A stretch of DNA of 64,000 nucleotides from Promethearchaeota archaeon Loki_b31 (GTDB lineage Archaea > Asgardarchaeota > Lokiarchaeia > Sigyniarchaeales > SOKP01). The position numbers were made by a program, and so were the translations under genes. The notes below the pieces were generated by a model. That model worked only from the letters and a program-made list of their open reading frames with translations. It did no database searches and was not told where the DNA came from. The stretch's first letter is position 1, and every line of letters starts with the position of its first letter. This document shows positions 5,055-8,983 of this stretch, piece by piece. The stretch is from NCBI GenBank assembly GCA_005222975.1, contig NJBI01000004.1, forward strand, positions 32,742 to 96,741, read 5' to 3'.

Positions 5055-6611
5055 TTATTTTAAGTTTCTCGTGTTAACTATTGCATTTAACATGAGCTTA
5101 AGGTAATCGTATATTTTTTCTCTGTAATCAGAACCAATTTTGAGAAACACTATCGATACAACCTTTTCTTCTAAATCTTGGTCAATAACAAATTCTTCCA
5201 TTAATTGGGACCAGCTTTTGTCGTCAGAAACTCGAACTCCAACGATAATTGCTCGTTTTTTTCTAATTTTTTGAATAATTTGAATTAAAATCTCCTTCCA
5301 ATTAGGATCGATGTGTTCTTTATCTCTAGCGTCGAATATACAAAAAACACCGTCAGAATTAGAAAGGTTAAATTTATCGTAAAGATAACTACTTAAGATC
5401 ACTCCGTTCTTATAAGTGTATAATTTTTCTTCGCTACTATCTTTTATCTTAGAAAAATCGCCTAGTTTTTCGATATCCAATATAGTATGGAATCCAGGGT
5501 TCCAGCTCATGCTATAACTAATAAAAGTTAATTCCAATATAATCAACTCTTTTAAAGCGGAATAAATCGCTTCTATTAAACCATCTTTGATTCTATCCTT
5601 TTCCTTTTTTTTACTTTTTACGATATAATGATAAGCAATTAATTCAAATGCGTCCTTAACATTATTTCCCGTAAGTGCGCTCGTTTCTATATAGGAGGAG
5701 CCATTTTCAGACAATGATTTGGCTAATTCTTCTCCTTCTTCGGTAGAAATTAATCGTTGTTCGGTCAAATCGCTTTTGTTACCAATAACCACTATGGGAA
5801 TGTCTTTTTCTTCGATGAGTTTAGATATTTCTTTATACCAACTCTTTATATTTTCAAAAGATTCTCTTTTAGTAAGATCAAAAACGATAAAAGCAGCTTC
5901 TGCACCAGTGTAATATATCTTGCGAAAACGTTTAAAATATTGTTGGGCACCAATATCCCATAACTGAACACCTATCTCATTTCCTTGGAAATCAAAATTA
6001 TGTGCTAAAATATTTAGGCCAATCGTGGCTCTATAATCGTGTGAAAACTTGCGCTCTACAAATTGTCGAATCAATGATGTTTTTCCAACCGTATGATCAC
6101 CAACAATTACGAACTTAAAGGCATACTTACCACTTTCAATGAATTCCGATTGACATATTGATGCTTTTAACTTTTCATGTCTTACAGCTTCATTATCAAA
6201 ATCGGGAATTGCCAATTGTATTGAATCGCCCGCTTGGGCGTTCAGTATTTGAGCTGATTTCTCTGCTAAAAAGTACGTGTAAGGCGCGACTTTTTCAACT
6301 GACGCCATACTGTTAAAAATTATACTTAATATTCTCTCTTCGTCAATAGTAACAAAAAATAAACGGTACTCATCTGTGTCAAAAGCGGCAGTTCCAAATT
6401 TTTTGAAAGAGAAATCATTTCGTATCCTTTCTAAAATCGGGTTTATTAGTGTAGTTAAAACAGATACAATTTCGACATCAATATCTTTTCTTTTTTCTCC
6501 CGCAATAACTAACCCTTCGATGTCGGAGACGATAATCGCTTCTACATCTGCAAATCTTTCTAAAAAATTACCTAAAATCTCGTTAAAAAGTTGATTTCTG
6601 TTTATAAACAA
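5055..6611 (-). CDS. Roadblock/LC7 domain - Ras/Rab-like small GTPase - C-terminal degenerate G-like domain protein
   Basis: N-terminal EAIIVSDIEGLVIAG is roadblock-like. G1 GDHTVGKTS, G3 WDIGAQQ, G4 GNKSDL, G5 ETSALTG. The C-terminal 170 aa lacks a P-loop but has DGVFCIFDARD ... IIVGVRVSD. Confidence 0.85.
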   Translation of the reverse strand: MFINRNQLFNEILGNFLERFADVEAIIVSDIEGLVIAGEKRKDIDVEIVSVLTTLINPILERIRNDFSFKKFGTAAFDTDEYRLFFVTIDEERILSIIFNSMASVEKVAPYTYFLAEKSAQILNAQAGDSIQLAIPDFDNEAVRHEKLKASICQSEFIESGKYAFKFVIVGDHTVGKTSLIRQFVERKFSHDYRATIGLNILAHNFDFQGNEIGVQLWDIGAQQYFKRFRKIYYTGAEAAFIVFDLTKRESFENIKSWYKEISKLIEEKDIPIVVIGNKSDLTEQRLISTEEGEELAKSLSENGSSYIETSALTGNNVKDAFELIAYHYIVKSKKKEKDRIKDGLIEAIYSALKELIILELTFISYSMSWNPGFHTILDIEKLGDFSKIKDSSEEKLYTYKNGVILSSYLYDKFNLSNSDGVFCIFDARDKEHIDPNWKEILIQIIQKIRKKRAIIVGVRVSDDKSWSQLMEEFVIDQDLEEKVVSIVFLKIGSDYREKIYDYLKLMLNAIVNTRNLK

Positions 6612-6738
6612 TCGAATCTACCTTCAAATATGATTAATATTGAATGGAATTTGTATTTATCATAAATATAACATAACTTATTTTTAAAAGTAGCTATTTC
6701 AATTTATAAAATTTTAATTAGAATTATTGGAGAAAATT

Positions 6739-8304
6739 TTAGAGGTTTATGATGGTGTTAAACATTACTTCAAGTTGGTCGTAGATTTCTAAGCGATACT
6801 CGAAACCAATCTTAAAAAATAAAAGAGAGACCATTTTTTTTTCTAGATATTCGTTAACATTAAATTCTTCCATAATATTTGACCAATCACTCTGATCAGA
6901 TACTCTTACACCTATTAGTGCGACCTTATTTTCGCCAAGGTTTTGGATTATATTAACAACAACTTCTTTCCATTTTGGTTCGATATGCTTCCTATCTCGA
7001 GCGTCAAATATAACGAAAACTCCATCTGAATCTGTTACATCTAAATTGTCAAAAAGAAAGTTCTTTATTAACAAACCATTGGAATACTCGTATAATCTTT
7101 TTTCTTTGTCGTCGATTACTTTCTCACACTCGCACAATTTATTTACTTCGTTTAAGATTTGTAACCCTGGACTCCAAAACGGACTATCTGTTACAAACGA
7201 GATTATTAAATTTTTATTCTTATTTAAAATTGAATTAATTTGAACCATTAAACTTTCTTTTAACTTTTGTTCTTCTCTTTCTTTACTCTTCATTATATAA
7301 TGATATGCTATCAATCTGAACGCGTCTTCTATGTTTTCACCTGTTAAGGCGCTAGTTTCAATATATGAGATATCTCCACCAGTATATTCTTTTGAAAGCT
7401 CATCAACTAAAGCAACACCGTTTTCATATCGAACAATTCGCTGACCAGACAAATCTACCTTATTTCCTACGATTGTGATAGGAATATTCTTATTTCCTAG
7501 AAATTCATCTAGTTCTTTATACCAAATTTTCACATTATCAAATGATTCTCGATTGCATACATCAAAAACTATAAATGCAGCTTGTGCACCTACATAATAA
7601 GTCTTTCTGAAGCGTTTAAAGTATTCTTGTGCACCTACATCCCAAAGTGATAAAGATACCTCGTTTCCATAAAATTTAATTGAGTGAGATAACACATTAA
7701 GCCCTAATGTTGCCCGATAATCGAGAGTAAATTTATTTTCTACAAACCTTCTTATAATAGAAGTTTTTCCCACTGAACTATCGCCGATTATTATAAATTT
7801 AAATTTGTATATTCCTCCCGAATCTAAACGGAGTTGATATATTTGTTCTTTTATTCTACTAGTACTATCAGAAATATTAGATTCTATTTCAAAATTCGGT
7901 ATATTAACTTGAATTGAATCGCCTTCGTTTGCAAATATGATTTGAGCAGTTTTTTCTGCTAGAAAATAAGCATATGGGCTAATTTTATCAACAGAAGCTA
8001 AAATGTCTAAAACTACGCTAAGAGTGACATTCTCGTCTATAGAAATAAAGAGCAATCGATTTTTTTCGGTGTCAAAACTAGCTGATCCAAACTTTTTGAA
8101 GGCAAATTCTTCCCGTATTCTTTCTAAAAGTGGATTTATTAATGCGGTTAATACAGATACTAATTCCATATCAGTGCTTGCTTTTTTTTGACCAGCTATA
8201 ATAAAACCTTCGCGATCAGATACAATTAGAGCCTCTACATCTTCATTAATAAGCAGAAAGTTAGTAAGAAGTTCATTAAAAAGTCGTTTTTTGTTTAAAG
8301 ACAT
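6739..8304 (-). CDS. Roadblock/LC7 domain - Ras/Rab-like small GTPase - C-terminal degenerate G-like domain protein (paralog of 5055..6611)
   Basis: Colinear with its neighbour: EALIVSDREGFIIAG, G1 GDSSVGKTS, G3 WDVGAQE, G4 GNKVDL, G5 ETSALTG, and C-terminal DGVFVIFDARD ... ALIGVRVSD. Confidence 0.85.
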   Translation of the reverse strand: MSLNKKRLFNELLTNFLLINEDVEALIVSDREGFIIAGQKKASTDMELVSVLTALINPLLERIREEFAFKKFGSASFDTEKNRLLFISIDENVTLSVVLDILASVDKISPYAYFLAEKTAQIIFANEGDSIQVNIPNFEIESNISDSTSRIKEQIYQLRLDSGGIYKFKFIIIGDSSVGKTSIIRRFVENKFTLDYRATLGLNVLSHSIKFYGNEVSLSLWDVGAQEYFKRFRKTYYVGAQAAFIVFDVCNRESFDNVKIWYKELDEFLGNKNIPITIVGNKVDLSGQRIVRYENGVALVDELSKEYTGGDISYIETSALTGENIEDAFRLIAYHYIMKSKEREEQKLKESLMVQINSILNKNKNLIISFVTDSPFWSPGLQILNEVNKLCECEKVIDDKEKRLYEYSNGLLIKNFLFDNLDVTDSDGVFVIFDARDRKHIEPKWKEVVVNIIQNLGENKVALIGVRVSDQSDWSNIMEEFNVNEYLEKKMVSLLFFKIGFEYRLEIYDQLEVMFNTIINL

Positions 8305-8407: not shown

Positions 8408-8983
8408 ATGGCTACTTGTATTATTTGTCATTTGGATATTAGTGAAGGTGTAGATTCTTTCGAGGAGTGTCCTAACGGACATCCTACTCATACTGATTGC
8501 TTGAAAGAATGGTTACTTCACGCTTCAAACTGTCCTTTATGTAGAGAACCGTACTCGAATCACATTATTGAAGTCTTTAAAGATTTTATTCAGCAAAAAG
8601 AGCAAGAAAAACAAGAAGCTTTAGAAAACGAACTAAAGCAAGAAAAAGTCAAACAGATGGGGAAAATTGCTGAAAAAATGATATTTCTGAAATTCATTGA
8701 ATCTATTGAGGTATTAATGGATGCGAAAGAATACGAGTATGCTCTATCAAGGTTAGATTTACATGATAACGATACCACTTCAAATCAAAAAAGTCAAAAC
8801 CTTTTGTATTTAAAGGGAAAGATAAATTACTTGAAAGGTCGTTATGATATGGCAATTAACTTATTAACTAAATTAGTAAAAGAAAAGTATGACTACCCAG
8901 AAGGTTTCTTATATCTTGGAAAATCCTATGAAGCCTTAGGTTTAAAAGATCAGGCAAAATGGGCGTATGATAGAGTTAATTAA
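8408..8983 (+). CDS. RING-H2 zinc-finger protein with coiled-coil and TPR-like C-terminus
   Basis: CIIC-x13-C-x3-H-x2-H-x2-C-x11-CPLC (aa 4-45) fits C3H2C3 RING-H2 spacing. A Glu/Lys-rich helix follows, then TPR-like YLKGKINYLKGRYDMAINLL ... YLGKSYEALGLKDQA. Confidence 0.75.
   Translation: MATCIICHLDISEGVDSFEECPNGHPTHTDCLKEWLLHASNCPLCREPYSNHIIEVFKDFIQQKEQEKQEALENELKQEKVKQMGKIAEKMIFLKFIESIEVLMDAKEYEYALSRLDLHDNDTTSNQKSQNLLYLKGKINYLKGRYDMAINLLTKLVKEKYDYPEGFLYLGKSYEALGLKDQAKWAYDRVN

Follow-up and report, generated by a model that had tools for sequence, protein, structure and literature searches.

Two adjacent genes in a 64,000-nucleotide stretch of the Promethearchaeota archaeon Loki_b31 genome (contig NJBI01000004.1, positions 32,742 to 96,741; hereafter the window) encode proteins built of the same three modules, namely an N-terminal Roadblock domain, a Rab-like G domain and a C-terminal domain with the fold of a small GTPase and none of its five G motifs, and we hold this architecture, together with the assignment of the third module as a pseudo-GTPase, with high confidence. 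Both genes, and all features of them given below, lie on the minus strand. Paralog A (P0002, positions 6739-8304) starts with ATG and codes for 521 amino acids (aa), and paralog B (P0001, positions 5055-6611) starts with TTG and codes for 518 aa. The original prediction for this DNA had described them as neighbouring genes with a common three-part plan, and they were indeed found as two co-oriented open reading frames, 52% identical and colinear from end to end in pairwise comparison. In the full-length AlphaFold2 (AF2) model of paralog A (predicted local distance difference test, pLDDT, 74; predicted template modelling score, pTM, 0.62) a low-confidence linker occupies residues 137-160, and a continuous helix spans residues 325-363, so that one long helix joins α5 of the G domain to the pseudo-GTPase domain. 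Foldseek searches with this model returned single-domain Rab matches only, which do not inform the arrangement of the domains.

The third domain comprises 177 residues in paralog A (positions 6742-7272, aa 345-521), where it was delimited by its AF2 fold and its structural matches, and corresponds to aa 342-518 of paralog B (positions 5058-5588), with 43% identity to the A domain and a match to the pseudo-G hidden Markov model (HMM) of the family at E 4e-72. Modelled alone, with 23 relatives, the domain of paralog A reached a pLDDT of 91.9 and a pTM of 0.88, and its elements follow the order helix, β1, α1, β2-β3 hairpin segment, β4, α3, β5, α4, β6, α5, that is, six main strands and five helix segments including the N-terminal helix, the switch-II helix being absent. 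When the model was compared with 48,161 chains by VIA-align, the best row was the Asgard Arf GTPase HodArfR1 (8oul_A; Z 13.2, root-mean-square deviation 3.5 Å, 160 of 177 residues aligned), followed by an Entamoeba Arf (4ylg_B, Z 12.2), Sar1 (6vs4_B, 11.9), ARL10B (11.8) and Arf1 (11.6), these top five rows aligning up to 160-162 of the 177 residues; the Asgard Rag-like structures 9m28 and 8yl2 scored Z 10.7 and 10.2. Foldseek likewise gave Arf1 (E 8.5e-6), with FMN reductases listed too. At the sequence level, all matches of the domain profile to PDB sequences under E 0.001 were Rho-family GTPases (Rnd1/Rho6, E 5e-4) in the β4-α3-β5 register, the same register in which hhalign placed the domain over the family's own G domain (E 0.0024, probability 12%).

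All five G motifs are lost from the third domain in the 24 members inspected, and that of paralog A has no P-loop, DxxG, NKxD or SAK. At the corresponding positions these members read approximately D-S-P-F-W-S-P-G for the P-loop, G-V-R-V-S-D for NKxD and F-K-I-G for SAK, and the conserved residues of the domain (the P-x-W-S-P-G loop, F-D-A-R and G-[IV]-R-V-S) sit at the strand ends where a nucleotide would bind. The original prediction had quoted the strings DGVF.IFDARD and GVRVSD, which are present in the translations, and had compared the region with strands 4-6 of a G domain lacking a P-loop; the pseudo-G character is borne out by the Arf/Sar/Arl structural matches and the Rnd1/Rho6 profile match, but the resemblance extends to the whole fold and not to those strands only. 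A phmmer search of 1.84 billion representatives found the third domain in 46 clusters only, all belonging to this family, and in full-length members the core architecture always ends with it. It is probably a very old and heavily diverged copy of a G domain. Apart from the family itself, the ESM Atlas holds stand-alone hypothetical proteins of Promethearchaeota, about 196-202 aa long, which resemble the dead G domain (template modelling score, TM, 0.60-0.62 over 152-155 aligned residues); one of these clusters has 1136 members and none carries a Pfam family, and they may be free-standing pseudo-GTPases. In a related genome, one family copy (G117:C216:2135-2674) contains two in-frame stops, TGA and TAA, in its third domain; it may be a pseudogene, or the stops may stem from faulty assembly.

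The middle module occupies positions 7273-7818 in paralog A (aa 163-344, with the Pfam Ras match at aa 169-333) and 5598-6134 in paralog B (aa 160-338, Ras match at aa 166-326). Both matches to Pfam Ras (PF00071) are far above the gathering cut-off of 21.6 bits, with E 8.9e-44 and 149.4 bits for A and E 1.3e-47 and 161.8 bits for B, and the Roc and Arf models score below Ras; Gtr1_RagA (PF04670) gave E 8e-4 and 19.3 bits for A, under its cut-off of 22, and no match for B. The PDB sequences closest to the G domain of paralog A are Ypt1, Rab1 and Rab11 (E about 2e-32), and the crystallised Thorarchaeota Rab (Thor-Rab) matches it at E 1.2e-30; by structure, Foldseek placed the model of A beside Rab8, Rab1 and Rab6 (TM by target 0.83-0.88). 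The G domain had been described as otherwise canonical, and this holds for G1 (GDHTVGKT and GDSSVGKT, one in each paralog), G2 in switch I (DYRAT in both), G4 (NKSD and NKVD) and G5 (ETSAL in both), as well as for the catalytic Gln. Residues K180, T199, D222, Q226, N281, K282, D284, S318 and A319 (paralog A numbering) are invariant in 35 relatives, and the same motif pattern is held in 24 members including B-type proteins and deep branches. Because the P-loop Lys, the switch-I Thr, the Asp and Gln of G3, NKxD and the Ser-Ala pair are all invariant, the domain looks competent for GTP binding and hydrolysis. The C termini of the two proteins read ...TIINL and ...TRNLK, with no terminal Cys in either; since the G domain is internal and this Cys is absent, these proteins are not prenylated Rabs of the eukaryotic type. 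A candidate arginine finger within switch I (Arg197, two residues before the G2 Thr) was rejected, as Lys or Arg is common there in the paralogs of this genome and the position is not that of MglA Arg53.

For the N-terminal domain (paralog A, positions 7900-8304, aa 1-135; paralog B, positions 6222-6611, aa 1-130), assignment as Roadblock is made with moderate confidence. In paralog A it is based on AF2 topology and a sub-cut-off match to Robl_LC7, and in paralog B on colinearity with A and the family Roadblock HMM (E 7e-64). According to DSSP, the full-length AF2 model of A runs H3-19, E23-30, E35-40, H46-66, E74-78, E82-88, E93-100 and H105-123, an α-β-β-α-β-β-β-α order over residues 3-123 that fits the expected fold. 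In paralog A, Robl_LC7 (PF03259) was matched along profile positions 3-89 of 91 with E 0.0033 and 17.6 bits, the cut-off being 23; in a Pfam scan of 15 members it matched eight at E ≤1 (best E 0.0011), nearly along the whole profile, and MAPKK1_Int matched five. The N-terminal HMM of the family also picks up two proteins of the same genome, L009 and L010 (E 1e-4 and 3.5e-4), whose own Robl_LC7 scores of 40.3 and 24.2 bits exceed the cut-off, and a feature search of the ESM Atlas returned Robl_LC7 clusters at 0.87-0.88, which we take as a lead only.

The family is lineage-specific. The third-domain profile detected it in 67 of 68 sampled genomes of the organism's own GTDB family, where it mostly occurs as a tandem pair, in none of seven genomes of the sister family of the same order and, in the other families of the phylum, in a single genome with 9% contamination. 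A single-protein search with a deep-branching member found it in 120 of 134 own-family genomes, in 1/1 and 3/4 genomes of two further families of the order, in none of 14 sister-family genomes (a 4.4-Mb single-contig genome among them) and, outside the order, in the same contaminated genome alone. Two Roadblock-GTPase (RG) paralogs of the organism's own genome, L007 (G000:C84:27362-28459, 366 aa) and L008 (G000:C50:18144-19364, 407 aa), lack the third domain and are the best genome matches to the family's Roadblock and G HMMs (E 1e-24 and 1.5e-13 with the former). In a maximum-likelihood tree of G domains the family forms one clade (96/93) nested beside these two RG paralogs (96/86), with the A and B types as crown sister groups. 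The three-domain family thus arose from two-domain RG proteins by the gain of a third domain, after which the gene would have been duplicated in tandem within one GTDB family. One genus carries a further extension, in which the three-domain protein is followed by a C-terminal coiled coil and about seven tetratricopeptide repeats (TPR), for a total of 822-896 aa (P0127, 894 aa; L014:3687-6155 and L014:11526-14216).

The explanation toward which we lean, with moderate confidence in it as a whole, is that these proteins are lineage-specific signalling GTPases of Asgard archaea, in which a Roadblock domain, a live Rab-like G domain and a dead G domain are combined in one chain. The Roadblock domains would pair like those of MglB, Ragulator, the C-terminal domains of Rag and other characterised Roadblock proteins, the Asgard ones crystallised by Tran et al. 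(2024) included, giving an A-B heterodimer or homodimers; such pairing would bring two G domains together on a Roadblock platform, much as happens in Rag/Gtr dimers or MglA-MglB, and the platform could tune the nucleotide state of the G domain, in cis or across the dimer. The dead G domain would have no enzymatic role and would instead offer a fixed adaptor or an allosteric surface for a partner. By analogy with those systems, a dimer mediated by the Roadblock domains is fairly probable, and an A-B heterodimer specifically is put forward as a tentative suggestion; because some genera and the deep-branching relative L006 have one copy, such a heterodimer is not obligatory for the family.

Several observations weigh against this explanation. 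Analogy is the basis for dimerisation, for regulation in cis and for the role given to the third domain. The Robl_LC7 score falls under the Pfam cut-off in every one of the 15 members tested, and among PDB sequences the Roadblock profile matched no Roadblock chain better than 7yh1_D at E 0.37, in a search where an acyl carrier protein reached E 0.034 by chance. At the sequence level the third domain is only weakly tied to G domains, and flavodoxin-like and receiver- or TIR-like folds also occur in its structural lists, at lower Z. The gene is single in some genera and in L006, and the alternation of Gly and Ala in the G3 motif of close orthologs argues that this variant has little functional weight. 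A complex prediction of paralog A residues 1-344 with residues 345-521, run without controls, gave an interaction score (ipSAE) of 0.01 against a mark of 0.32 and says nothing on docking either way.

According to the leading alternative, A and B do not pair and instead work as separate homodimers or monomers with different targets, their tandem arrangement being a recent local duplication. We regard it as possible, though rather doubtful. Genomes carry one to five copies; in some genera of the GTDB family one copy per genome is common, and elsewhere three to five copies lie at separate loci. The deep-branching member P0152 is a lone gene in another gene context, and extra copies are solitary beside other genes. 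The spacer between the two genes of the window (positions 6612-6738) comprises 127 nt, is AT-rich with TATA-like runs, and could hold a promoter of its own; the hexamer GAAGGT lies inside it, about 9 nt before the TTG start of paralog B, in a window that is itself AT-rich (G+C about 32%). Nevertheless, same-strand pairs 1.6-1.9 kb apart occur in dozens of genomes, and the order of A followed by B is held at 65-84% identity and recurs in many genomes, drawn from at least three genera, a retention longer than usual for a neutral duplicate. Orthologs of paralog A are 65-93% identical and of steady length (about 521 aa), and B-type orthologs of 516-544 aa come after A in L003, L004 and L005.

A second and distinctly unlikely alternative, that the G domain is a permanently nucleotide-loaded structural module and the protein a scaffold instead of a switch, concerns the G3 motif. 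This motif reads WDVGAQ in paralog A (D-V-G-A-Q at positions 7627-7641, aa 222-226; Ala codon GCA) and WDIGAQ in paralog B (D-I-G-A-Q at positions 5943-5957; Ala codon GCC), with both Ala codons verified in the DNA and the Asp and catalytic Gln present. HMMER aligned D-V-G-A-Q over D-T-A-G-Q of Ypt1 without gaps, so that Gly comes one position early and Ala takes the position of Ras Gly60; neither paralog therefore has the Gly of DxxG at that position. Ala and Gly there differ by one base. Within the genome, among about 50 small-GTPase paralogs, only A and B carry GA, the remainder having AGQ, GGQ, AGE or GGE and one AAQ; the latter kind is seen in a 187-aa Rab-like paralog on contig C78 (C78_+_30841_31401), whose G3 reads W-D-I-A-A-Q, without Gly, and whose tandem neighbours have A-G-Q. 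Among 128 relatives of at least 400 aa, however, GA occurs in 73 and the canonical GG in 48, with GS in five and AG and AA in one each.

The motif, originally presented as a shifted G3, is thus real as D-[VI]-G-A-Q in both paralogs but is not a hallmark of the family, since Ala and Gly alternate among the relatives. P0013, P0054 and P0088, which are orthologs of paralog A with 73-84% identity, have W-D-L-G-G-Q, the RG paralogs of the genome, which are the nearest outgroups, have D-L-A-G-Q, and deep branches of the family have GGQ or GSQ. The Gly at the position of Ras Ala59 is nearly invariant, and the position of Ras Gly60 is relaxed and toggles even in close orthologs; the motif is therefore better described as D-x-G-G-Q, its second Gly being relaxed, than as displaced by one residue. 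The two common forms in the same 128 relatives are Val-Gly-Ala (48) and Leu-Gly-Gly (47), which suggests compensation of size or volume between P0002 residues 223 and 225, the former next to Asp and the latter at the Ras-Gly60 position.

In H-Ras, the G60A substitution favours the inactive state 1 and drastically impairs intrinsic GTPase activity (PMC4867591), and Gly is absent at that position in 78 of the 128 relatives, both of which speak for a loaded scaffold; by analogy with Ras, it is a reasonable guess that the Ala probably slows intrinsic hydrolysis in our paralogs. Nevertheless, the invariance of the catalytic Gln, the switch-I Thr, the P-loop, NKxD and the SA pair implies selection for nucleotide chemistry, the canonical GG is found in 48 of the 128 relatives with orthologs at 84% identity among them, and the Gly one position earlier may bring flexibility back. 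Because close orthologs have Gly there, we see the Ala as a tunable, non-defining feature of a signalling GTPase.

The weakest alternative, that the C-terminal domain is a flavodoxin-, receiver- or TIR-like three-layer α/β binder of a small ligand and not GTPase-derived, draws on the SsuE FMN reductase and flavodoxins among its Foldseek matches (E 1e-5 to 4e-4), a TIR domain at Z 10.8 and receiver domains at about Z 9 in VIA-align, flavodoxin clusters at TM 0.52-0.57 in the ESM Atlas and the low hhalign probability already given, but it is very improbable given that GTPases hold the top five VIA-align rows over 148-162 residues, whereas TIR, receiver and MeaB-type rows cover 108-130, that the model contains a β2-β3 hairpin segment (E51-55, E60-63, E67-73) as is typical of small GTPases, and that the sole PDB sequence matches under E 0.001 are Rho-family GTPases in the correct register.

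The neighbours of the gene pair are ordinary or unrelated genes. Downstream lies a convergent gene of the isopropylmalate/isocitrate dehydrogenase type, and the other neighbours are thiamine genes, a Nudix gene and genes for very large surface proteins. On the upstream side, divergent from paralog A, a plus-strand gene (positions 8408-8983) codes for a 191-aa RING-H2 and TPR protein (zf-RING_2, 32.6 bits against a cut-off of 27.3), which also accompanies the family gene in L003, L004 and L005 and stands beside a single family copy in L012. The order RING-TPR, A, B, dehydrogenase is conserved in the contigs at 65-84% identity (L003-L005), and this is weak evidence of a functional link because synteny there extends over the entire neighbourhood. 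Between the TPR extension of P0127 and the RING-TPR neighbour no specific similarity was seen (best E 0.14). In three other loci (L011:5926-10956, L014:6238-11196 and L015:725-5134) extra copies of the family gene lie tail-to-tail with genes for giant proteins of 1469-1676 aa with DUF2341 and the lectin-like Laminin_G_3, which could reflect either a duplicated two-gene block or a functional tie to surface proteins.

Small GTPases and Roadblock or longin platforms belong to the main "eukaryote-like" systems of Asgard archaea, and almost none of them has a known partner or regulator. In the family described here a regulator fold is covalently linked to one live and one dead GTPase, often as a conserved gene pair, which offers a compact and expressible system for the control of a Rab-like GTPase by Roadblock and for the role of a pseudo-GTPase outside eukaryotes, and the natural alternation of Gly and Ala at the Ras-Gly60 position in close orthologs is a ready-made switch II experiment. 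A more elaborate version of our explanation, in which A and B form a Rag-like heterodimer on their own Roadblock platform, the dead G domain being the fixed partner of the live one in each chain, and in which the complex is possibly coupled to the RING-TPR neighbour or to the giant surface proteins, is unlikely as a whole; if true, it would provide a prokaryotic precedent for regulatory pairing of a GTPase with a pseudo-GTPase.

Combinations of these domains have been reported before. In Ca. Prometheoarchaeum MK-D1, the architectures G, RG, GR, LG, LGR and similar ones, some with unknown domains, were described together with Roadblock dimers, RG and GR dimers and crystal structures of Asgard Roadblock proteins (Tran et al. 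2024, PMC10933270); the label "RGX" was not found in the machine-read text of the supplement to that paper. Many lineage-specific multidomain GTPase and Roadblock proteins were also mentioned, in general terms, by Liu et al. (bioRxiv 10.1101/2020.10.19.343400). Roadblock-GTPase fusions as such have already been catalogued from Asgard archaea (PMC10933270), which corrects the original prediction, but we found no paper that describes this form, nor any that joins the terms pseudo-GTPase or pseudoGTPase with Asgard. Our proteins resemble the Asgard RG proteins in the N-terminal Roadblock domain fused to a small G domain and in the absence of a prenylation Cys, and differ in that RG proteins end after the G domain whereas the present family adds a pseudo-GTPase domain of 177 aa.

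Rag dimers assemble via their Roadblock domains. With RagA/B-RagC/D, and Gtr1-Gtr2 of yeast, our family shares the presence of a G and a Roadblock domain in one chain and the existence of two paralogous chains, whose genes are adjacent in our case; unlike them, it has the Roadblock domain at the N terminus (an inverted order), an additional dead G domain, and a live G domain that is Rab-like by score (149-162 bits with Ras, compared with 19 for Gtr1_RagA at a cut-off of 22). The bacterial system MglA-MglB, in which a Roadblock dimer is the GAP of a Ras-like GTPase and which is the source of the idea of control by a Roadblock platform, is similar in pairing the Roadblock fold with a small GTPase; however, MglA and MglB are separate proteins and the G domain studied here is not MglA-like, the MglA-like paralogs of the same genome reading T-A-T-G-Q or T-V-A-G-Q where the three-domain family has W-D-x-G-A-Q. 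Eukaryotic pseudo-GTPase domains include pG1 and pG2 of p190RhoGAP, CENP-M and IRGQ, the last of which is among the structural matches of our third domain (8q6q, Z 9.1 in VIA-align). Like them, the third domain is a G fold deprived of its nucleotide-binding motifs within a larger signalling protein; it has no detectable sequence relationship to them and, unlike them, it is archaeal and follows immediately after a live G domain of the same polypeptide.

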